Shown: piece after piece, positions 1-17,459 of the stretch
Layout of the letters: the number at the start of each line of letters is the position of its first letter
How positions within the stretch are numbered: the stretch's first letter is position 1
Origin: Candidatus Thorarchaeota archaeon
Lineage (GTDB): Archaea > Asgardarchaeota > Thorarchaeia > Thorarchaeales > Thorarchaeaceae
DNA: 17,888 bases
Assembly (NCBI GenBank): GCA_048882385.1
Contig: JBHLRQ010000015.1
Span: forward strand, 28,733 to 46,620
Direction: 5' to 3'
The notes under the pieces: model-generated
Told to the model about the DNA's origin: nothing
Database searches by the model: none
Seen by the model: only the letters and a program-made list of their open reading frames with translations
Made by a program: the position numbers and the translations under genes

Positions 1-100
1 TTCTCGAAGTAGACTAGACGGTCAACAGCATTCTCGAAGTAGACTAGACGGTCAACAGCATTCTCGAAGTAGACTAGACGGTCAACAGCGTTCTCGAAGT
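1..100. repeat. 30-bp tandem direct repeat (TTCTCGAAGTAGACTAGACGGTCAACAGCA) x3.3, coding; degenerate 27-bp units continue to ~200
   Basis: Units 1-30 and 31-60 are identical, 61-90 differs only at position 90, and 91-100 is a partial unit. No spacers. Each unit encodes 10 aa on the minus strand. Confidence 0.97.
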
Positions 101-389
101 GGAGCCGATCGACCATAGATACAATCACTATACGATCGACAGCGTTCTCAAAGTAGAGTCGATCGACAGAATTTTCAAAGTAGCTTCGATCAATCATAGA
201 AACTGGTCCAGTATCTAGGCACTGGGCAATTTCTTTGGTTTCTTCTGTGAAAAGACCATCTGGAGCTACAGCTATTGTGTTGTTCATACTCATCCAAGCC
301 ATTGCGATTAATGAACCAAAAACAGCGAGTGTAAGGACGAACAAGATTCCTGAAGCAAGTACAACCCTATAGGATTTTTTGGTAAACAT
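1..389 (-). CDS. Signal-peptide/TM-anchored protein with tandem 9-10 aa DR-ending repeats (3' end truncated by window edge); candidate multi-core precursor or repetitive surface protein
   Basis: Manual translation from ATG at 389, open to position 1: MFTKKSYRVVLASGILFVLTLAVFGSLIAMAWMSMNNTIAVAPDGLFTEETKEIAQCLDTGPVSMIDR-SYFENSVDR-LYFENAVDR-IVIVSMVDR-LHFENAVDR-LVYFENAVDR-LVYFENAVDR-LVYFE... Basic N-terminus plus ~22 hydrophobic residues. Purine-rich GGAGAAGA just upstream. Synonymous codon variation between units (GAT/GAC, CGA/CGT/CGG, TTT/TTC, GAA/GAG) supports this frame. Absent from the ORF track because no stop lies in the window. Confidence 0.88.
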   Translation of the reverse strand, partial: MFTKKSYRVVLASGILFVLTLAVFGSLIAMAWMSMNNTIAVAPDGLFTEETKEIAQCLDTGPVSMIDRSYFENSVDRLYFENAVDRIVIVSMVDRLHFENAVDRLVYFENAVDRLVYFENAVDRLVYFE

Positions 390-497
390 TTTCTATCTTC
401 TCCATTAGGTGTAAGGATTCAGTGACGATATTGTTGTGAAATTGATCAGTCCAGTTTTTACCAGACTGAAGATGTCATTGTTTTTCCAAATCACTCA

Positions 498-579
498 AAT
501 ACTACGAAATAGTATTACATGATACATGTAATATATTTTTCGGTAACACTATTTACAATAGAAAGATATATTACGTAAT
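498..579. promoter_or_regulatory. AT-rich cluster of overlapping inverted repeats upstream of the DR-repeat gene (probable promoter/operator)
   Basis: AATACTA-N5-TAGTATT (498-516), TATTACATG-N3-CATGTAATA (513-533), GTAATATAT (528-536) / ATATATTAC (566-574), and palindrome ATTACGTAAT (570-579). The minus strand reads GAAAAATATATTAC, which is BRE/TATA-like. Confidence 0.5.
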
Positions 580-595
580 TATGTTACAATAATCA

Positions 596-669
596 AGAAG
601 TCCCCCGGTCATGAAGATTGGAAATGTTCTCCTTCTTTCTGTTCTCAACGGGGTGGACGGGGGATTTCT
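596..669 (-). terminator. GC-rich long-loop inverted repeat immediately after the radical SAM stop codon (possible terminator or RNA-processing element)
   Basis: AGAAGTCCCCCGGTC (596-610) pairs with GACGGGGGATTTCT (656-669) with one mismatch and one bulge, enclosing ~45 nt. No clear U-tract follows. Confidence 0.35.
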
Positions 670-2490
670 CTACTCCTTTTCCTTCCGTTTTATTTGTCTG
701 CGGAGTTCAGCAATCTCAAAACTGAGTTCTGTGTAGGCTATTGCGTCTGTTTCCTCATTCCAGAAGATGAATATCGTTCGTGGTTGTTTGTCAAGCTTGT
801 TAGGATTGTAATCATGACCCATGATTCTATTCATGTGCTCAATCGGATGATACCAGGTTTCGATAAACTTACTGTGATCAGGTTTTCGTCTGGCAACTTC
901 AGCAAAAGCAATTTCTGCTTCAACGATTGCGTCATAAAGAAGTTCATTGTCATTATCATCCCTTAAGAGCTCGATGACCAAATCTCTGATAGACTCCATC
1001 ATTTCTCGATAATCAATCTCTGGCCATTTCAATTCAGGAATTCCAATTTCTTCAAGCTTATCAATCAACCTTTGAGCTAACTTGTTTCCCAGAATCGAAT
1101 ATGCGAATTGTATACTGCAAGTAGATAGAGAGTCAACTATCTGTCCCAAATAGACTTGTCGAATGATATTCTCTCTTTTCATTGATGGAGTATTAATGTA
1201 GTAGTAGTTGGGAAATATATCTGGGTGTGTTTTGATCATGGTCCGAAGTTCAGTCCAACTGATTGGTGGAAAGTCAGAATGTCCTGGGCCACCGTAGTCA
1301 TCATACTCTAGGTATTCTTTCATTGTTTCAAACAGTTGTGAGCCTGGTTCGGGAACAAGAGAATGTATCTGAATGAGAATATTTAGTGGATGAATCGATT
1401 TCGCATGTATCACGAACTCCCACAATTCTACAATATCCGCTATTTTTTCCTCAGGAAATCCAACTACGAAGGATAGCGTAATTCTGAAACCCAAATCTGC
1501 AGCAACCCGTAGGATTTCATCAATATTTGTCAGGTCTAATCTTTTGTTTATCCTACTTTGTAATCTGTCTGATACAGTTTCTATTCCCAGATAGATACTG
1601 TCACAGCCAGCCTGTCTCATCTTCTTAAGAATCTCTTCATCCAGAGTATCCAATCTCGCACTACAGCTCCAAGCAATTGGAGTTTCTATTAATACTAGAC
1701 CGTCACATAGAGAGAACATATAATCCCGATTAAATGTCAACAAGTCGTGATTCAGTTTGATTCTTTTGTGTCTGAATTTCTTTTGTATGACTCGAATCTC
1801 CTCAATCACTCGTTCAACAGATTTAACTCGAAACCTCCTCTTGAAGAAACTTGAGGTTGAACAAAATATGCAGGCAAATGGACAACCTCTTCCTACTTCG
1901 AGAGTCACAGGTTCATCACTGTTCTCATCTTCTTCACAGACAGCATAATCTGGAATCGGGAGTGAATTCAAGTCCTTAATTGGATCAGGCCAACCATTAT
2001 CTAAAATCTTGACTCCGTTTCGATGCACGACACCTTTGATATTGGTAAAATCTTCTCCCTGTATCATTTGATTGACCAACATAGGTAATGCGAAATCCGA
2101 TTCACCACGAATAATGAAATCCACATCCTCAAATAGTGACATTATGTTGCCCGCACTAAATGAAGCTCCTGGACCTCCCAGAATCGTTTTTGTCATTGGA
2201 TTCATTTCTTTGACTTTACGACAAACATCCAATGCCATTACTATATTGTTGGACATGGTTGAAAGGCCTAGTAGATCGGGTTTTGTAGATAATATCTTCC
2301 CAACTATCTCTTCCATTATTTGCTTGTAATCCGAAAAAGCCGTTATCGAATAGTTTGCTAAGTCGAGTATTTCAACATCAATGTTTACTGATTTCAGAGC
2401 TGATGAGAGAGTCAAAATTCCTAAGCATCTGTGGATTGGTACACGAGTTTCCATTGAAATCTGATGAATGGCTACCAATGTAATCTTCAA
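670..2490 (-). CDS. B12 (cobalamin)-binding domain radical SAM protein (class B radical SAM methyltransferase-like)
   Basis: N-terminal B12-binding-type motifs KPDLLGLST, ILGGPGAS and VDFIIRGESD. CxxxCxxC motif in GRGCPFACIFC. Also AGCDSIYLGIET, FVVGFPEE and PEPGSQLF, followed by a long C-terminal extension. TTG start preceded by GAGAAGA. Confidence 0.93.
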   Translation of the reverse strand: MKITLVAIHQISMETRVPIHRCLGILTLSSALKSVNIDVEILDLANYSITAFSDYKQIMEEIVGKILSTKPDLLGLSTMSNNIVMALDVCRKVKEMNPMTKTILGGPGASFSAGNIMSLFEDVDFIIRGESDFALPMLVNQMIQGEDFTNIKGVVHRNGVKILDNGWPDPIKDLNSLPIPDYAVCEEDENSDEPVTLEVGRGCPFACIFCSTSSFFKRRFRVKSVERVIEEIRVIQKKFRHKRIKLNHDLLTFNRDYMFSLCDGLVLIETPIAWSCSARLDTLDEEILKKMRQAGCDSIYLGIETVSDRLQSRINKRLDLTNIDEILRVAADLGFRITLSFVVGFPEEKIADIVELWEFVIHAKSIHPLNILIQIHSLVPEPGSQLFETMKEYLEYDDYGGPGHSDFPPISWTELRTMIKTHPDIFPNYYYINTPSMKRENIIRQVYLGQIVDSLSTCSIQFAYSILGNKLAQRLIDKLEEIGIPELKWPEIDYREMMESIRDLVIELLRDDNDNELLYDAIVEAEIAFAEVARRKPDHSKFIETWYHPIEHMNRIMGHDYNPNKLDKQPRTIFIFWNEETDAIAYTELSFEIAELRRQIKRKEKE

Positions 2491-2597
2491 TTGAATCTTC
2501 TCTGTTTATCGATTCACAGCAGAAACTCGAGTCATTATCATATTTCCGTTGTAATCCAATCCGTGTCTTTGGTTGGTTCTCATTAGACTATAGATAT

Positions 2598-2831
2598 TCA
2601 CCTATCAGTAACGCCCAGTGTTCTACTGATGCCACCTAGGCCATCTTCTAGTTCAGATATTGTCGTGGCAGCTCTACAAAGAAGATCGATTACTCTCATT
2701 TCCTCTTCGGTCAAATCTCTCTGCAGTCTTTCCATGACCTCTTCTCTATTTTGACACACATTTTTACGGAACTTGGGATCTCTGATCATCCGTTCTATTA
2801 GAACATCAATTGATACCGGAACTTTGCTCAT
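2598..2831 (-). CDS. Small NHLP-clan/Os1348-like leader protein; putative RiPP precursor (77 aa)
   Basis: The likely start is the ATG at 2831 (GGAAGGTG upstream) rather than 2864. MSKVPVSIDVLIERMIRDPKFRKNVCQNREEVMERLQRDLTEEEMRVIDLL matches the remembered NHLP/Os1348 pattern LIxRxxxDxxFRxxxxxxxEE...LTxEE. It ends ELEDGLGG-ISRTLGVTDR and lies directly upstream of the radical SAM gene. Confidence 0.75.
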   Translation of the reverse strand: MSKVPVSIDVLIERMIRDPKFRKNVCQNREEVMERLQRDLTEEEMRVIDLLCRAATTISELEDGLGGISRTLGVTDR

Positions 2832-3006
2832 TACATACACCTTCCATTTACGCGGAGTGGACAATCATTTTTGTAGCCTTGAGGTTGGTAATATATTCTT
2901 ACAAATCGAGCTTATACACATTAATCATAGATTTCTTTGTTCGAAAGACTCATCTCAAAGATAATTGATAGATTGCAGTTACAAAGTAACTGGTGAGGGA
3001 GCAGGC

Positions 3007-4503
3007 TTGAAGCCACTAGGAACAATCACTATGCATCTAAAGTTCTTAGACCAAGAGGCAAGTGAAGTTCTCACTTCAATCATGAACGATGCTGAGAATT
3101 ACTGTGACTTTGTAGTCCAACTGGGTAACTGTGTATACCAGATTGAAGCCCCAATTGAACTTGCTCATATAGCATCTGTCCATGCTTGGGAGCTTAGAGA
3201 TACAGCTGTTATTGATGATATATCCAGTAAATATGGTGGCCACCCGTTTGTTAAACCCTGGACATATCCTATTAGAAGCAGAGGTGATCGACTCTCACAT
3301 TCTCACAAGATTCAGGATGCTGTTGATCATGCGATTACGTTGAAGCCTGCAGATTGGATTCATGCGGAGCTTTTACTGGTAAAAGCATATGCACTCTTAC
3401 ATACTCCTGATGGGATTGTTGCTCTTCAGGCAGCGAAAGATATCATTGATGTAAACAAAGACTTGGATTGTTACAAACCACAGGTTCATCACATCGAAGG
3501 AAGAATTCATCATGAAGAGGGAAATAACCAGTTGGGAATACCAATATGCAAAGTAGGTCTTGAACTTGCTTTGGCTCAAGATAACAAATGCCAAGCCATC
3601 TGGTTGCTCCGTTGGCTAGGTATGCTGTCAATGCATGATGACCTGAAACAAGCCTCGGCATATCTTGATCATGGATATTCGCTCGCTAAGGAACTTGGTG
3701 CACCCTTTCATTTGGAACATGTCCTAACAGAGATGGGGTGGATATCCACAATATTGGGGGAGTATGATCTTGCTCTGGCGTTCTATGATGAGGCAAGAAA
3801 AATGTCCATTTCACAAGATGAGTTGACAGACCGTCACTCACTCATTCTTTCACGAATTTGCAGTGACATATGTGATGGAATTCAAGCCCTTGATTGGGCA
3901 CAGTGGACATTGGACTGGCATTTGTCTCATGGTTCTGCAGGTGATTCTTACGCCCATCTTGCTATGGCTCGTGCTCTGATACTTCTAAACAGATTTGATG
4001 AAGCAAGGGAGTATCTCGACACAGGTGGAAAGCTTGCATTTCAAGGAGGACAGGAACGAGAGGTGTGCATCTACTATTTGGTTTCTGGTCTTTATGAAAC
4101 AGCCACTGGTTCTCCAGCGGATGCCATCGCTACCATCAAGAATGCGCTGGAGATATGCGAAAGAACAGAAACAGCGATTTATCGTAATAGATGCCTCTTA
4201 GGCCTGGCTCAGGCAGAACTAGCTGTATTCCAGCTGGAAGGAGGGGATGATACAGGTGAATCTCCAGGAAGTTGGATGAACTACTTGGAAGAAAAAGCAC
4301 TTGAACATAATCTTCCCGGCCTACTTATGCAGCATAGAATGCTGCTAGCTGATTTTCGATTATTACAGAATCGCATTCCAGAAGCTCGAAAAATACTGAT
4401 TGACGCCTTAGATTTATACGATTCTCCAGGTGTTCGAACTCTTCAGAGGCTGATTCTCGAAAAGATACGATCAATTGATACAAGAAAACAAATTGTGAGC
4501 TAA
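3007..4503 (+). CDS. TPR-like helical repeat protein (Thorarchaeia-type 'KPLGTIT' family)
   Basis: Helical repeats such as LGEYDLALAFYDEA, MARALILLNRFDEAREYL and AIATIKNALEIC. Probable TTG start at 3007 after GGTGAGGGAG; the ORF track starts it at 2965. Confidence 0.8.
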   Translation: MKPLGTITMHLKFLDQEASEVLTSIMNDAENYCDFVVQLGNCVYQIEAPIELAHIASVHAWELRDTAVIDDISSKYGGHPFVKPWTYPIRSRGDRLSHSHKIQDAVDHAITLKPADWIHAELLLVKAYALLHTPDGIVALQAAKDIIDVNKDLDCYKPQVHHIEGRIHHEEGNNQLGIPICKVGLELALAQDNKCQAIWLLRWLGMLSMHDDLKQASAYLDHGYSLAKELGAPFHLEHVLTEMGWISTILGEYDLALAFYDEARKMSISQDELTDRHSLILSRICSDICDGIQALDWAQWTLDWHLSHGSAGDSYAHLAMARALILLNRFDEAREYLDTGGKLAFQGGQEREVCIYYLVSGLYETATGSPADAIATIKNALEICERTETAIYRNRCLLGLAQAELAVFQLEGGDDTGESPGSWMNYLEEKALEHNLPGLLMQHRMLLADFRLLQNRIPEARKILIDALDLYDSPGVRTLQRLILEKIRSIDTRKQIVS

Positions 4504-12477: not shown

Positions 12478-13434
12478 GTGGTGAGTAGATTGGATCCCCT
12501 AGACTGGGCTTTGATATGTGAACTGTGCGGCAATGCAAGGATGCCGTATAAAACACTCGCAAAGAAATTCGATATTTCAACTAATACAGTCAAGAACCGT
12601 ATCATCAGACTTCGTAAGCAAGGAGTGATTAAGAAATTTGGCGTTTGTGTAAGCTTTGAAACGCTTGGCGCTGAAAGCGTAGCTGGTTTTGTTATTACTG
12701 ATGGATCCGAGAATGTGATAGAGCTAATGGAACAAATCGCCGACCAGCCTATGATTTGTGAAATCTATCGTACTAGTGATCGCCGTTATGAGTATCATGC
12801 AATGGTGTTGGGAGCAGGTGAAACTCTTGGACTCAAACGGCTCTTAAGTAATCTTGATGGTGTAATTGATGTGGAAATGAGACCCATTGTCCTTCAATTT
12901 CCTAACAAACCGCCTACTTATCCTGGTAATACACGAGGGAAGAGAGTCACATTCACCCGCGATCAATTACGTGTTCTGAAAGCGCTGACAATAGACTCTC
13001 GACTGCCTGTTTCCAAGATTACTCAAGAAACAGGATTCACTCCCAGACGAGTACGGAAAATCCTCCGGAATCTGCAAGAAGGTGGTGGTGTCCATACCTA
13101 TGCCATTTACAATGCATATGCGTTGGGAGATATGGAATACCGAATGAGAATCAGCTATGACGATGCAAAAACGACAGGTCAGAGCATCATAATGGAGCTG
13201 TACGACAAGTATCCAGAACTATTCTGGTGGGGAAGCATCACCACCAATGAACCAATCGTTGATGTGGGTCTGATCATTGATCGTCCCGGTAAAGGTCCGC
13301 CAATTGCTGCTGAGATTAAAGCAGCTGCTTATACCAAGTCTGTAGAGGACTTTGTATCCTATCCTAGGGTTGTTGCTAGTGTCAACAGGCTCAATGCTCA
13401 TCTATGGGATTTGATTCATGAGGCTGAGCTTTGA
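12478..13434 (+). CDS. Lrp/AsnC-family transcriptional regulator with two tandem wHTH modules
   Basis: LDPLDWALICEL...ARMPYKTLAKKFDISTNTVKNRIIRLRKQGVI, and a second module DQLRVLKALTIDSRLPVSKITQETGFTPRRVRKILRNL. Confidence 0.92.
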   Translation: MVSRLDPLDWALICELCGNARMPYKTLAKKFDISTNTVKNRIIRLRKQGVIKKFGVCVSFETLGAESVAGFVITDGSENVIELMEQIADQPMICEIYRTSDRRYEYHAMVLGAGETLGLKRLLSNLDGVIDVEMRPIVLQFPNKPPTYPGNTRGKRVTFTRDQLRVLKALTIDSRLPVSKITQETGFTPRRVRKILRNLQEGGGVHTYAIYNAYALGDMEYRMRISYDDAKTTGQSIIMELYDKYPELFWWGSITTNEPIVDVGLIIDRPGKGPPIAAEIKAAAYTKSVEDFVSYPRVVASVNRLNAHLWDLIHEAEL

Positions 13435-16400
13435 TCTTCACTAATCGATATTATTCTCTCCATACTCCTTGAATGTTGAATTGGGGCTATTCGTTCGAAT
13501 GGCCGATGATTGAATCGTCGTTTCCGCCAGATATATTGTCCTGCAAAGACAGAATATAGAAGAATCACAGCTCCAAATCCTGCCAGTATAAACAGCACTA
13601 GAGTATCAGATCCGGAAGCACTGGGCGGGTCAATATGATACTGTATCAAGCTACGTGCTCTTACAGGATTCCCTTCTCCAGAGGAAGCCTCACCTACAAC
13701 AAGATAGATGCCCTTTTGCCAAATGCCTTCAGCTACATAGTAGGCTATCGTTTCCGGTGACCGATAGAGGTAGACTCCAGGTTCAATCTCTGACATGATC
13801 ACTGTCCAGAAGAGGTTTCCATCCGGGTCATAGATTCTAAGCTCGATGTACGCCCCTGAGATAGGCTCGCCAGTTTCATCGAATGTGAGCAATGCTCCTA
13901 TCTGTATTGGAACCTCCTCAGTGTCTGGGTAGTCGAAGTTCCCATTGAGTTCAAGCGACCATTGCACACTCAGCGAATCTACAACTGTTATGGTGAATAT
14001 TGCCGTTAGAATACCGACATAGATACCATAGGGTGCAAGCCACTCATCAACAAAAACCGAGTAGATGTTCTCCACACCCACCTCAACTCTATACGTTCCA
14101 ACAGGTAATTGCATTAGGTCAGTGATTCTTCCCTCATGATTGATAGCAAAGTGTTCCGTGTCATTAATCCACCAAGACTCAACCGGTGGATCGTGTGAAC
14201 CAGCTTCAAGGTCAAGGTCAAGGTTGAGCAATGCGAGGCGTTGACCAAACTCAAGAGTAAAATCATTGAGAGGCGCCAACCATCTTGATTTTGAGTAGTA
14301 AACAAGCGGATGTGGGTCCACACTGCCTGCCTCTCCAGGAATGTTGTATGGGGTATCCCCTATACCATCACCGTCATTGTCAGGTCCCACATATTCAGAA
14401 TAGTAGTTGTAATAGAAATCGTTCAGAGTTCCAACTACATTTTCTTGAACATCATGTTCGGAACTCTCAGCAAAAGTATTCCACCAAACCACTATGTAAT
14501 CTGATGAGGTGATGAATAGACCGAATTTATTTCCAATGCAAATATCATAATAGACTCTGTTATCATCCGAGTATCTGATCGAGATGCCAGCGTCTGCATT
14601 GCCATTGCAGGTGTTTTCCTGTACTCTGTTACCATTTGAATTTTCGAGTTTGATGCCACGGACGTTGTCATCACAGGTATTTCCATCCAGAATATTGCTA
14701 TCTGCTCTATCAAGGCGGATACCGTTATCCTCGTTGTAAGTGCAGGTATTTCCTTCAAGCGTGTTGCCAGTTGAGTAGTAGAGGACAACGCCGTCTTCCC
14801 AATTGTGCAGGCAGGTGTTTCCATCCAGCGTGTTGATATGTGAATAATTAATCACAATCCCATGGTTTTCGTTGACATTACAGGTGTTTCCAGAAAGCGT
14901 GTTATGATGTGAGTCCCAGAGGTAGATACCATAGTCGTTGACATTACAGGTGTTTCCAGAAAGTGTGTTCCAGTCTGAGTAACAGAGGTAGATGCCAAAC
15001 TTGTTGTTATTGCAGGTGTTTCCAGAAAGCGTGTTGCCATGCGATTCATCGAGGTATATTGCATGAAGAAAGCTACTGCAGCTGTTGCCGTCCAGAGTGT
15101 TTTCATTTGATAATAAAAGAAGTATGGCATTAGGGTATCCATCGCAGGTGTTCCCTGACAGCATGTTACCATCCGACTCTTCGAGGTAGATACCATAATC
15201 TGAGTTGCCAGTGCAGATGTTTCCAGAAAGCGTGTTTCCATCCGACTCTTCGAGGTAGATACCATAATCTGAGTTGCCAGTGCAGATGTTTCCAGAAAGC
15301 GTGTTTCCATCTGATCTATAGAAGATGTAGATGCCGTCTTCGTCATTATCACTGCAGGTGTTGCCGTCCAGCGTGTTTCCATGCGAAAGATGTGGGCGAA
15401 TACCATAGGTATTGTCACTGCAGGTGTTGCCAGAGAGTGTGTTGTCATTTGAAGAAACGAGGTCGATACCTATCATATTATTAGCATTACAGGTGTTTCC
15501 ATCCAGCGTGTTTCCATGCGATTGATGTAGGCAAATACCATTGATATTGTCACTGCAGGTGTTGCCAGAGAGTATGTTTTCATCCGAGTATGAGAGGATG
15601 ATGCCTTCCCCATCCTCTTCAACAAGGTTAACATTTTCGTTGCAGGTGTTACCAGAGAGTGTGTTCTCATTTGAAGAATAGAGGCGGATGCCTCTCATAA
15701 TATTGGCATCACAGGTGTTTCCATCCAGTGTGTTGCTTTCTGAGTAAAAGAGGTAGATACCATTTTCATTGTAACTACAGGTGTTCCCGATTAGCGAGTT
15801 GCCATTCGATTCTTCGAGGTAGATGCCATAGTCGTTGTCAGTGCAGGTGTTCCCGATTAGCGTATTGTCATCGGAGTCACTGACAAAGATGCCGTTCGCA
15901 TTGGCTTTACAAAGATTCTCCAGAATCTGGTTCCCGGTACTCTCCCCTCTAACGGCAATACCACATAGAGCATTCTCACTGCAGTTGTTATCCGTCAGAA
16001 CATTATCAATGCCTAGCCAAAGGTTGATTCCCGCTTGAGGATTAATGAAGCAATGATTATGAATGATCCTGTTGTCAAAAGCTCCAATCCCAACACCAAT
16101 ACCACTCCACCCGTTGTCAAAGCATTCGTTGTCCTTCACTATATTTAGCGTGCTTGAATAGAGTACAGCTATACCTTCCAAGAAGTTGTCACTGCAGGTG
16201 TTTCCGTCCAACATGTTGATATTCGATTCTTCGAGGCAGATGCCATAGTCGTTGTCAGTGCAGGTGTTCCCGATTAGCGTATTGTCATCGGAGTCACTGA
16301 CAAAGACGCCGTTCGCATTGGCTCTACAAAGATTCTCCTGAATCTGGTTCCCGGTACTCTCCCCTCTAATGGCAATACCCCATAGATTATTCCCGCTGCA

Positions 16401-17459
16401 GTCGTTATCCGTCAGAACATTGTCAATGCCTAGCCAAAGGTTGATTCCCGCTTGAGGATTATTGAAGCAGAAATTATGTCTAATCATGTTGTTATATGCT
16501 CCAATCCCAACACCGATACCACTCCATCCGTTGTCATAGCAACGATTGTTCCTCACCATGTTCTGTCTGCTCTCGTAAAGCACACCTATTCCTTCCCAAT
16601 TGTTACCTGAACAAGTATTATTTGCCACAACAATCGAATAAGCATCGTCAATTCGAATCCCATAGCAGTTGCCTATGCATGTATTGTTTGACACCCAGGT
16701 GCTATTGACAAATCTACCATAGTTCACGTTGTAGAGGTGAATGCCTGCACGCCAGTCAGGAGTCGCTCCTTGAAGAGTGCAGAAACGTATCCGGAAGAAG
16801 ATTTTGTCTATATTGTGAATCTCGATGCAGCTCCTGTCATCACCTCCCACATCGATGTCTAGACCTTCAATGAGGTAAGGGTCTTCCATTGTGCCTTCAC
16901 CGAGCCAGTCCTCCCTCTTGGCTTGTCTGTCGAAATCATCATCGCCTTGAATGAATATAGGGTCATGTGGCACCCCGAGTGGCGTGTCCTGAAGCGGAAT
17001 TGGAAGGAGCATATCAACTGCTCGCTGACTCATCCCATTCAGACTCGGCATAGGTGGCTGATAATCATATTCTGGCATAGTGACTGCGGGGCGTTGAATC
17101 TCAACATCTGGTGCGTTGATTATTGGATCCTGATGCCAATTTTCCAGCCTAGGTCGTGCAGAAATCAAGGTGAATTCGGATTGGATTTCATCAAGTTCTA
17201 TAGGTTGAAACTGTTGTAATTTTGCGGAACTTGCCTGTATCTCTACATTGTCTAGTGTAGCTCCTAGCATTGCATCTCCTGTGTCATCTGGCCAATATGC
17301 TGGTTGTGAGAATTCGTCTATTAATGGATAAGCTGCGACATGGAGGTCGTAGCTTCCCATCGGGGCTAGAAACAGACCCAATCCTGTCAAAGATAGAATC
17401 ACACATAGAGAGCAAGCAAGTACTCGCAGTTTATTTTTTCTCATTACTGTTTCACTCAT
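13416..17459 (-). CDS. Large right-handed parallel beta-helix (NosD/PbH1 repeat) cell-surface protein with C-terminal Ig-like segments and TM anchor
   Basis: N-terminal signal/TM, then the GEGTMEDPYLIEGLDI cap motif. More than 30 repeats of 22-24 aa (GIxLxxSxxNTLxGNTCxxN). NosD terminal motif YYSEYVGPDNDGDGIGDTPYNIPG. C-terminal TM followed by WRKRR. Confidence 0.93.
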   Translation of the reverse strand: MSETVMRKNKLRVLACSLCVILSLTGLGLFLAPMGSYDLHVAAYPLIDEFSQPAYWPDDTGDAMLGATLDNVEIQASSAKLQQFQPIELDEIQSEFTLISARPRLENWHQDPIINAPDVEIQRPAVTMPEYDYQPPMPSLNGMSQRAVDMLLPIPLQDTPLGVPHDPIFIQGDDDFDRQAKREDWLGEGTMEDPYLIEGLDIDVGGDDRSCIEIHNIDKIFFRIRFCTLQGATPDWRAGIHLYNVNYGRFVNSTWVSNNTCIGNCYGIRIDDAYSIVVANNTCSGNNWEGIGVLYESRQNMVRNNRCYDNGWSGIGVGIGAYNNMIRHNFCFNNPQAGINLWLGIDNVLTDNDCSGNNLWGIAIRGESTGNQIQENLCRANANGVFVSDSDDNTLIGNTCTDNDYGICLEESNINMLDGNTCSDNFLEGIAVLYSSTLNIVKDNECFDNGWSGIGVGIGAFDNRIIHNHCFINPQAGINLWLGIDNVLTDNNCSENALCGIAVRGESTGNQILENLCKANANGIFVSDSDDNTLIGNTCTDNDYGIYLEESNGNSLIGNTCSYNENGIYLFYSESNTLDGNTCDANIMRGIRLYSSNENTLSGNTCNENVNLVEEDGEGIILSYSDENILSGNTCSDNINGICLHQSHGNTLDGNTCNANNMIGIDLVSSNDNTLSGNTCSDNTYGIRPHLSHGNTLDGNTCSDNDEDGIYIFYRSDGNTLSGNICTGNSDYGIYLEESDGNTLSGNICTGNSDYGIYLEESDGNMLSGNTCDGYPNAILLLLSNENTLDGNSCSSFLHAIYLDESHGNTLSGNTCNNNKFGIYLCYSDWNTLSGNTCNVNDYGIYLWDSHHNTLSGNTCNVNENHGIVINYSHINTLDGNTCLHNWEDGVVLYYSTGNTLEGNTCTYNEDNGIRLDRADSNILDGNTCDDNVRGIKLENSNGNRVQENTCNGNADAGISIRYSDDNRVYYDICIGNKFGLFITSSDYIVVWWNTFAESSEHDVQENVVGTLNDFYYNYYSEYVGPDNDGDGIGDTPYNIPGEAGSVDPHPLVYYSKSRWLAPLNDFTLEFGQRLALLNLDLDLEAGSHDPPVESWWINDTEHFAINHEGRITDLMQLPVGTYRVEVGVENIYSVFVDEWLAPYGIYVGILTAIFTITVVDSLSVQWSLELNGNFDYPDTEEVPIQIGALLTFDETGEPISGAYIELRIYDPDGNLFWTVIMSEIEPGVYLYRSPETIAYYVAEGIWQKGIYLVVGEASSGEGNPVRARSLIQYHIDPPSASGSDTLVLFILAGFGAVILLYSVFAGQYIWRKRRFNHRPFERIAPIQHSRSMERIISISEDQSSAS
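15169..15311. repeat. Perfect 69-bp tandem duplication inside the beta-helix gene
   Basis: The unit starting CCATCCGACTCTTCGAGG occurs at 15169 and 15238 with no mismatch seen. It encodes GNTLSGNICTGNSDYGIYLEESD twice. Confidence 0.93.
15804..16617. repeat. Imperfect 417-bp (139-aa, six-rung) tandem duplication inside the beta-helix gene
   Basis: ATTCGATTCTTCGAGG occurs at 15804 and 16221, and GCCATAGTCGTTGTCAGTG at 15825 and 16242 (offset 417). Protein blocks such as NPQAGINLWLGIDNVLTDN and VSDSDDNTLIGNTCTDNDYGI occur twice. End points are approximate. Confidence 0.9.

Follow-up and report, generated by a model that had tools for sequence, protein, structure and literature searches.

The Vlp and Vsa lipoproteins of Mycoplasma are size-variable surface proteins in which a conserved N-terminal anchor is combined with tandem repeats. 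Short peptide repeats of another kind characterize the KEX2-processed repeat proteins (KEPs), which PMC6339444 defines by a signal peptide, three or more internal repeats, and KR, RR or KK between the repeats. Here we describe a gene of a Candidatus Thorarchaeota archaeon that can be compared with both. It begins in a stretch of 17,888 nucleotides (assembly GCA_048882385.1, contig JBHLRQ010000015.1, positions 28,733 to 46,620), the whole of which is called the window below. The gene encodes a hydrophobic N-terminal segment, an acidic spacer and an array of short peptide units. To judge from its sequence, the protein has no detectable homology to described families, and a conserved anchor bearing a variable tandem-repeat surface tail is familiar as a kind of protein. 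With confidence somewhat above even, we propose that it is a genus-restricted, single-copy, regulated and dispensable protein, anchored with its N-terminus inside and its C-terminus outside (N-in/C-out), which displays short, beta-prone, acidic units of fast turnover outside the cell. The topology, the beta-rich structure, the surface exposure and a binding or adhesive role are the parts of this proposal that we infer; the anatomy of the gene, its translation in this frame, the constraint on the peptide, the family distribution, the synteny and the independence from a neighbouring radical-SAM enzyme are shown by the data.

The gene and its repeat units

The portion of the gene that falls in the window is divided as follows, with the basis of each assignment in brackets.

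3..389, minus strand: 5' part of the anchor-plus-repeat gene, codons 1-129 (open reading frame listing, GGAGG start context, ratio of non-synonymous to synonymous differences)
291..389, minus strand: N-terminal anchor, residues 1-33 (alignment A1 of 18 genus members, AlphaFold helix)
213..290, minus strand: acidic spacer, residues 34-59, with an N-x-T sequon (NNT) right behind the anchor (translation)
3..212, minus strand: first half of the tandem array, residues 60-129 (table of units and codons, Tandem Repeats Finder)

The open reading frame (ORF) on the minus strand at 3..389 comprises 129 codons and is open at its 3' end. The start of the window (G000:C15:28733-46620, G000 being the genome of the window) directly abuts a scaffold gap of 100 N inside the repeat array, and the remaining part of the gene lies on the other side of this gap (G000:C15, L004 14328..14733). 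Read across the gap, the gene encodes 264 residues ending in ...DRRVIVSMVD-stop; this length and the unit totals given below are nominal, as the array is interrupted by the gap. Contigs from four public sequencing runs all stop inside the array, and none of them bridges the gap. The word depth on the repeat unit in run X5 is about 4-5 times that of the flanks, a value that is not a copy number.

The architecture described in the original prediction from the letters of the window, namely a hydrophobic N-terminus, an acidic spacer and tandem units of 9-10 residues, is borne out by the translation. The acidic stretch between anchor and repeats spans about 30 residues (residues 34-65 by translation). 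Seven [IV]DR motifs, at residues 66, 75, 84, 93, 102, 112 and 122 (spacings 9, 9, 9, 9, 10 and 10), and six [YH]FEN blocks, at residues 70, 79, 97, 107, 117 and 127, were confirmed; the last block is YFE, cut by the window edge. The possibility that the repeats form a linker to a large C-terminal domain had also been raised. The gene recovered beyond the window holds no C-terminal domain, only units up to the stop codon. The description of the gene as unannotated is correct for its function but not for the ORF, which gene callers predict (P0001). A homolog, P0002, is recorded at NCBI as hypothetical and as coming from a Promethearchaeota archaeon, a name that agrees with the suggested Asgard origin.

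The units in the window read TGPVSMIDR, SYFENSVDR, LYFENAVDR, IVIVSMVDR, LHFENAVDR, two copies of LVYFENAVDR and the cut LVYFE. The unit IVIVSMVDR had been singled out as the one divergent member. The motif is indeed present, but it does not stand alone: the full gene contains six copies of this second regular type, xx[IP]VSM[VI]D(R), next to 12 complete copies and one cut copy of x[YHC]FEN[AS][VI]DR. Val, Ile, Phe and Tyr abound in both types (...VIVSMVDR and ...[YH]FENAVDR), and Asp-Arg punctuates them. The whole gene has 17 [IV]DR motifs, compared with about 0.4 expected by chance from the composition of the tail. At least 18 units fill residues 60-264 of the nominal 264, more repeats and a larger share of the protein than the three repeats and 15% used to delimit KEPs. 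The complete homolog P0002 is 70% identical, and the two types alternate strictly in it with a B-A period of 18 residues; the alternation is the ancestral arrangement. A sub-array of the 10-residue unit LVYFENAVDR is additionally expanded in G000, with nearly identical 30-bp copies. Tandem Repeats Finder reports a DNA repeat at window 1-100 (period 30 bp, 3.3 copies, 98% matches) and a second one of period 27 bp at window 133-191. Recombination or slippage between such near-identical units of 27-30 bp would let the array grow or shrink.

The 12 FEN-type units are encoded by seven distinct DNA versions, which specify only three peptides. The seven versions of the FEN core differ from one another by 69 synonymous and 16 non-synonymous changes, corresponding to proportions of differing sites of 0.76 (synonymous, pS) and 0.046 (non-synonymous, pN) and to a pN/pS ratio of 0.06. 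The ratio for the VSM core is 0.08, pS ranges from 0.63 to 0.76 and is thus close to saturation, and the Arg codons CGA, CGT, CGG and CGC are all used in the array. Since synonymous differences between units far exceed replacements, the frame at 3..389 is translated and its peptide motif is constrained.

The tail consists to 44% of Val, Ile, Leu, Phe, Tyr, Trp and Met and to 3% of Pro and Gly, and carries a net charge of -18. Its mean hydropathy H in the charge-hydropathy plot (0.506, boundary 0.447) lies on the folded side. This composition is beta-strand-prone and points, indirectly, to folding or association rather than to intrinsic disorder.

Anchor and tail across the genus

The protein starts with a Lys- and Arg-rich segment (MFTKKSYR), continues with a hydrophobic stretch of about 24-25 residues and then shows a conserved juxtamembrane sequence, ...FGSLIAxAWMSMNNT. 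The consensus across the family is ...VFGSLIxVAWMSMN[NA]T..., and both subfamilies I and II of alignment A1 keep the NNT or NAT behind the anchor. Single-sequence AlphaFold models have a mean predicted local distance difference test (pLDDT) of 52.9 for the G000 protein and 46.2 for its G013 homolog, the anchor helix alone being confident. The window protein has a single predicted helix at residues 4-40 (means over blocks of 10 residues 68, 83, 79 and 57), and the homolog has one at residues 4-31 (77, 92 and 77). According to the positive-inside rule, the basic flank of a membrane helix stays inside. Because the hydrophobic stretch comes after K4, K5 and R8 and before an acidic flank, we infer an N-in/C-out topology. 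The segment may alternatively serve as a long signal peptide cut at the A-x-A motif that alignment A1 places just ahead of Trp32. A type IV pilin-like class III signal was considered and rejected. In archaea this signal is a [KR]-[GA] motif directly before the hydrophobic helix; in alignment A1 the hydrophobic stretch directly follows an Arg or Lys, which itself comes after His, Tyr, Gln, Ala or Gly, and no member has a K/R-G/A junction.

The family was delimited with alignment A1, which covers the first 45 residues of 18 genus members and served as the anchor profile. With the whole protein as query, matches were obtained in 17 of the 27 other genomes of the genus, some of them running through the repeats, and in 0 of 33 genomes from elsewhere. 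The anchor profile found one strong copy in each of 20 of these 27 genomes, and thus, with G000, the gene is present in 21 of 28. In 58 genomes of the family outside the genus, the profile gave two weak matches and a single strong one, the latter in G216 at the edge of a contig. Against 1.84 billion representative proteins it returned 38 matches of 42-217 residues, 32 of which start within residues 1-5. A metagenome scan with a narrower anchor alignment gave five loci, and one with the single window protein gave no relative.

The tails behind this anchor differ strongly. The unit is IDFRLDPGETVS (12 residues) in G013, LDYRVDPNTVRI in G004 and RRGPIEIMPDYAPFE in G015; G010 has a unit of 21 residues, and G026 a triple unit of 27 residues, VIDFKDAAR/VIHFREPVR/TVDYRDAVR. 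Six other members have tails without clear repeats that end in YIGPGENPxxPGxLLD. Tail periods across the family are thus 9, 12, 15, 18, 21 or 27 residues, or there is no repeat, and 16 of 54 distinct members reach at least 30% identity at their best period. By eye, FENAVDR of G000 aligns with IHFREPVR of G026, and the units probably share ancestry. Copy number shifts even between near-identical loci, the G014 protein having 123 residues and that of locus L083 144, with one extra 21-residue unit. Decay is also seen, as an in-frame TGA in the G018 copy and as frameshifted stubs of 42 residues in L085 and L086, where remnants of the tail are readable in another frame.

A second anchor-plus-repeat family, with another N-terminal helix and acidic 8-residue units APIE[DN]AVDQ that resemble FENAVDR of G000, occurs at the unrelated loci L022 5631-6332 (G011), L020 5962-6390 (G018) and L024 1-549 (G002). 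Its G011 copy also bears a C-terminal hydrophobic segment.

The chromosomal position of the gene is largely maintained. A 109-residue ribbon-helix-helix-like (RHH) protein is encoded at 12 of the 18 loci scanned, convergently with the tail gene in G000, and a sulfhydrogenase-type hydrogenase gene stands beyond it in eight of those 12. On the opposite side, 13 of 18 loci carry a methionine sulfoxide reductase gene, in most cases accompanied by a PAS gene. The segment between the tail and PAS genes is variable and holds either a weakly YdjM-like membrane protein or a cassette around a radical S-adenosylmethionine (rSAM) enzyme. The start of the tail gene is preceded by GGAGG about 9-10 nt ahead of the ATG in 7/7 aligned genus loci, and the upstream region contains the following features.

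390..595, minus strand: conserved AT-rich upstream region of the tail gene (long invariant blocks in a 7-genome DNA alignment)
515-531: palindrome TTACATG-ata-CATGTAA, within this upstream region
570-579: palindrome ATTACGTAAT, within this upstream region

In the seven genus loci, 390..595 is nearly invariant whatever gene stands further upstream. The two palindromes look like operator sites and are possibly targets of the neighbouring RHH-like protein. The gene of this protein (L004 13799-14128, plus strand) lies outside the window; 55 of 81 family genomes were matched, with one to eight matches each. The protein belongs to no Pfam family, and NCBIfam gave only a weak match to AbmR. In genus g3 (L058-L061 at about 640-910, minus strand), a gene of 87-89 codons was found in four of eight loci examined. 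It stands near the orthologous RHH gene, on its opposite side. Its product combines a hydrophobic helix at the N-terminus with an acidic tail (VPKEIHRRVPIEIHED...) and is possibly a remote analogue of the repeat-tail family.

On these grounds, we propose that the basic N-terminus and the helix of about 24 hydrophobic residues would anchor a small single-pass membrane protein N-in/C-out. Everything behind the anchor, made only of short peptide units, would be exported. Selection within a genome holds the peptide sequence of each unit, and between species the tail is swapped for units of quite another kind, without change of anchor, promoter or chromosomal location. The repeated motif may then bind or self-associate outside the cell. 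If this proposal is true, the protein is a lineage-specific, fast-evolving surface repeat protein that could mark strain and species diversity, and it would be a candidate mediator of contacts between cells or with viruses in Asgard archaea of the uncultured Thor type. Strong constraint on the units within the genome, their replacement in sister species and the conserved promoter form the pattern expected of a recognition motif. This pattern keeps a small chance alive for a system of released peptides, which is considered below.

Several observations weigh against the displayed-tail proposal. The claim of a beta-rich tail derives from composition alone. AlphaFold draws the G000 repeats as helix at pLDDT 36-58 and those of G013 as coil or strands below 50, and the ESM Atlas model of the repeat protein (pLDDT 0.51) aligns with beta-helix and bactofilin models at template-modelling (TM) scores of only 0.39-0.49. 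Pfam (E <= 0.01), NCBIfam and PADLOC assign the repeat protein to no family, and a PDB search with it gave chance-level matches only (best E 0.014). The N-terminal segment may be a cleaved signal peptide, although a signal anchor is no less likely. None of the listed sequencing runs is on record as RNA. Two further points, the very strong constraint on each unit peptide (the pS values given above) and the regular Arg that closes 17 units while the last ends ...VD-stop without it, would also be expected if the units were cut apart and released.

Alternative explanations for the tail

The alternative that survives best, although we regard it as unlikely, is a fibre. The hydrophobic segment would then be a cleaved signal peptide, and the 18-residue (B+A) repeats, rich in Val, Ile, Phe and Tyr, would stack, once released, into a beta-solenoid or cross-beta polymer that makes up an extracellular matrix or sheath. 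The hydrophobic composition, poor in Pro and Gly and on the folded side of the charge-hydropathy plot, is consistent with this, as are the ancestral 18-residue period of P0002 and the A-x-A just before Trp32. The weak Atlas alignments to beta-helix and bactofilin models point the same way, as do weak, fragmentary Pfam matches of the G013 units to the beta-hairpin parts of Fn3-like domains. However, the AlphaFold models of the G000 and G013 proteins contain no confident solenoid, the low values quoted above applying to both and to the Atlas model, and an ESM Atlas feature search gave no usable match. Known fibre subunits keep their repeat register; here unit length and sequence vary between species. 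Many tails, with 50-70 residues and one or two motifs, are too short for a fibre, and no secretion accessory or nucleator genes stand at the locus. The original prediction had offered a beta-rich surface or fibre protein as its second choice, with alveolins as the analogy. The beta-rich alternative fits the data better than the precursor that was preferred there, but lacks a confidently predicted solenoid. The analogy itself is unsupported: alveolins are intracellular eukaryotic cytoskeletal proteins, and this protein has an export or anchor segment and no match to any Pfam family at E <= 0.01.

We consider a system of released peptides improbable, and place it marginally behind the fibre. Here a secreted pro-protein would be cut after Arg, the Arg perhaps being trimmed, into many copies of two or three peptides of the xVIVSMVD and xHFENAVD type, which would act as signals or antimicrobials in an archaeal analogue of alpha-factor, KEPs or prohormones. 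An N-terminal export segment followed by nothing but units is what such a precursor would look like, and the constraint on the units and their closing Arg have been mentioned. Some relatives have RR at unit boundaries (three in P0002, RRGPIEI... in G015/P0024 and RRG[DS]IEYVP in P0036), and the G000 genome encodes about nine S8 subtilases (10 matches). Conversely, only 1/17 boundaries in G000 is dibasic (RR), the others being Asp-Arg followed by Leu, Ile, Ser or Glu. In the family, dibasic dipeptides are missing from the tails of 36 out of 54 members, and at least two are present in only six. The basic residue at the boundary is not kept, G013 having ETVS or ETAT there and the repeat-related family B Gln or Ala, and in about two thirds of the members the motif is present just once or twice, or a repeat is not evident. 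The kexin P-domain PF01483 gave no match in the 95.3%-complete genome, its control being positive in Methanosarcina. The length of the hydrophobic segment would allow it to remain in the membrane, and the loci scanned show no linked gene for a protease or an exporter. A YdjM-like membrane protein was considered as processing partner and rejected, as its Pfam score is 20.9 bits (cut-off 29) and the gene is absent from the G000 locus.

The multi-core precursor of the KEX2, dikaritin or prohormone kind that the original prediction favoured is therefore not upheld, given the single dibasic boundary, the missing P-domain and the unconserved Arg. For the dikaritin oxidase UstYa/DUF3328 (PF11807), the genome gave no match, and the control was silent in all 14 genomes, which leaves this negative without demonstrated power. 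A more specific version, in which a Sec-exported polyprotein is cut after each Asp-Arg by a non-kexin protease and trimmed, is less probable still in our view. It would release two alternating peptides of eight to nine residues, xVIVSMVD and xHFENAVD, each in many copies, from one regulated locus and in species-specific peptide dialects. If true, it would provide a species-specific extracellular signal or weapon following the logic of eukaryotic alpha-factor and neuropeptide precursors, and any such released-peptide system would be the first prohormone-like polyprotein in archaea.

A third explanation makes the tail a multi-core precursor for a peptide that is ribosomally synthesized and then post-translationally modified (RiPP), in which, for example, the aromatic residue of YFEN or HFEN is C-methylated by the enzyme of the neighbouring cassette (670-4503). 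We judge it very unlikely. The cassette consists of three genes.

670-2490, minus strand: B12-binding radical-SAM enzyme, 606 residues (Pfam, NCBIfam)
2598-2864, minus strand: NHLP-like ORF, 88 residues (leader-like pattern of alignment A3)
2965-4503, plus strand: divergent TPR protein, 512 residues

The best named relative of the enzyme is ApyD (NF050148). The match covers residues 17-473 and model positions 20-472 of 645 and scores 311.1 bits, against a cut-off of 750; by sequence, the enzyme is a relative of ApyD and not an equivalog. In aminopyruvatide biosynthesis, ApyD C-beta-methylates the Tyr beside an acidic residue in the C-terminal GYLYD of ApyA, as described in PMC10635010. Every unit of the tail has an aromatic residue followed by an acidic one, the enzyme gene sits 280 bp upstream of the tail gene on the same strand, and the two adjoin in 4/4 complete genus loci that bear the enzyme. 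Repeated-motif substrates of rSAM enzymes exist as well (TvgA/TvgB, described in PMC9062424).

The distribution of the two genes speaks against this link. Orthologs of the enzyme are found in 5/28 genomes of the genus, where one is truncated by the end of its contig, compared with 21/28 for the anchor gene, and at least 12 loci hold the tail gene without the enzyme. Homologs of the repeat protein thus mostly occur away from any modifying enzyme, which had been named in advance as an outcome that would speak against the precursor idea. Conversely, both of the two further metagenome loci with the enzyme have the frameshifted 42-residue tail stub, and in three of three genomes from two other genera the flanks retrieved around the enzyme, approximately 1.5 kb to either side, hold no anchor-repeat gene. 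In the genomes examined, one or more small NHLP-like ORFs of its own always lie directly upstream of the enzyme, and the conserved promoter region of the tail gene belongs to that gene alone. The N-terminus of the tail protein is a predicted membrane-inserting helix, no leader family of Pfam or NCBIfam was matched, and with an N-in/C-out topology the tail would be removed from the cytoplasm, the place of action of a radical-SAM enzyme.

The cassette, made up of one or two small ORFs, the enzyme and the TPR protein, is present at the locus in G000, G010, G026 and G002, with enzymes that are only 44-57% identical to that of G000. The combination of the enzyme with a small leader-like ORF recurs in three more genus genomes and in the three genomes of other genera, where the ORF lies upstream and the TPR protein is near in two. 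The enzyme and the TPR protein, which alone were checked there, are both present in the two metagenome loci, and the TPR protein stands beside the enzyme in all such loci except that of G196. Seven genomes in a sample of 301 from the phylum have the enzyme. The small ORFs upstream of it share a leader-like pattern (alignment A3); six of eight match the NHLP-clan family NF038399 at E <= 0.05 (best 8e-5, 22.7 bits), all under the cut-off of 40 bits, and one matches PF14407 weakly. G014 and L083 retain a 34-residue remnant of the TPR gene. The independence of the tail gene from the enzyme is well supported by these comparisons. We read the cassette as a separate unit inserted at the same variable spot, and one insertion that was then inherited can account for the adjacency of the two in the genus. 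Two genes for SAM-dependent methyltransferases lie about 2.6-5.7 kb from the enzyme; Pfam scans of the larger window ORFs, which left several ORFs of at least 90 residues uncovered, gave no MNIO or P450. The ApyD-like B12-radical-SAM enzyme with its NHLP-like peptides and TPR protein is a cleaner lead to a RiPP in Asgard archaea than the repeat gene.

A spurious ORF in a non-coding tandem DNA repeat that chances to be open is hardly credible. Such repeats can indeed hold several frames open, and RNA runs are missing from the record, but the units differ in this frame at pN/pS of 0.06-0.08, every repeat period is a multiple of three, and the anchor, start context and position are kept across 21 genomes.

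Neighbouring elements and comparison with described systems

A further conserved feature separates the promoter of the tail gene from the variable cassette.

596..670, plus strand (the more stable one): conserved element of about 75 nt bounding the variable cassette (7/7 aligned loci)

RNAalifold gives -27.1 kcal/mol for its plus strand, with a closing stem of 12 bp, and the single-sequence z value is -3.6. A compensatory change in G002 converts CCCCC/GGGGG into CCCTC/GAGGG. The element is kept whichever gene stands beyond it and is present in a single copy in the genome, and Rfam gave no match in window 1-3000, which includes it. Its conservation and predicted fold make it a candidate structured small RNA or regulatory element, which may or may not be linked to the tail gene. 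Contigs of runs X1 and X8 leave the reference at L004 15401 (window 668), the junction of the element with the stop codon of the enzyme gene, which suggests that variants with another cassette coexist in the sampled populations. Elsewhere, the window contains no tRNA genes, and at 13416-17459 (minus strand) it encodes a 1347-residue NosD/right-handed beta-helix protein with tandem DNA repeats of 66-69 bp in its gene, which looks like an ordinary large surface protein.

The repeat-protein family was not found in the literature in a limited search on Asgard RiPP precursor peptides; passages of PMC12144867 give predictions at class level only. The neighbouring cassette resembles the ApyD system in an enzyme with B12-binding and radical-SAM domains and in a RiPP-type context with small leader-like peptides, and differs from it in the archaeal host and in a score far under the equivalog cut-off. 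TvgA/TvgB, as described in PMC9062424, share with the locus a short motif occurring many times in one small product and an adjoining radical-SAM gene; TvgB, however, is an rSAM-SPASM enzyme and TvgA is given without a membrane segment, whereas the enzyme here is of the B12-binding class and has NHLP-like peptides of its own.

The tail protein itself resembles KEPs and alpha-factor precursors in its export segment, its short pro-region and its compact array of near-identical peptides with the last copy at the stop codon. It differs from them in its Asp-Arg boundaries, in the anchor-like hydrophobic segment, in the absence of a kexin P-domain from the matches in the genome and in having no sequence homology to them. 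With curli CsgA and alveolins it shares an export signal and imperfect short repeats rich in beta-formers, but its repeat register varies across the family, no accessory genes are present, and no confident beta-solenoid is predicted. Compared with the Vlp and Vsa proteins, it has no lipobox Cys, is encoded by a single copy and not by a phase-variable multigene family, is archaeal, and shows no homology; its units are hydrophobic and beta-prone, in contrast to the highly hydrophilic units of Vlp and Vsa. What it shares with these proteins is a conserved anchor or leader, a charged C-terminal array of short units that vary in number from strain to strain, fast divergence of the exposed part and dispensability.

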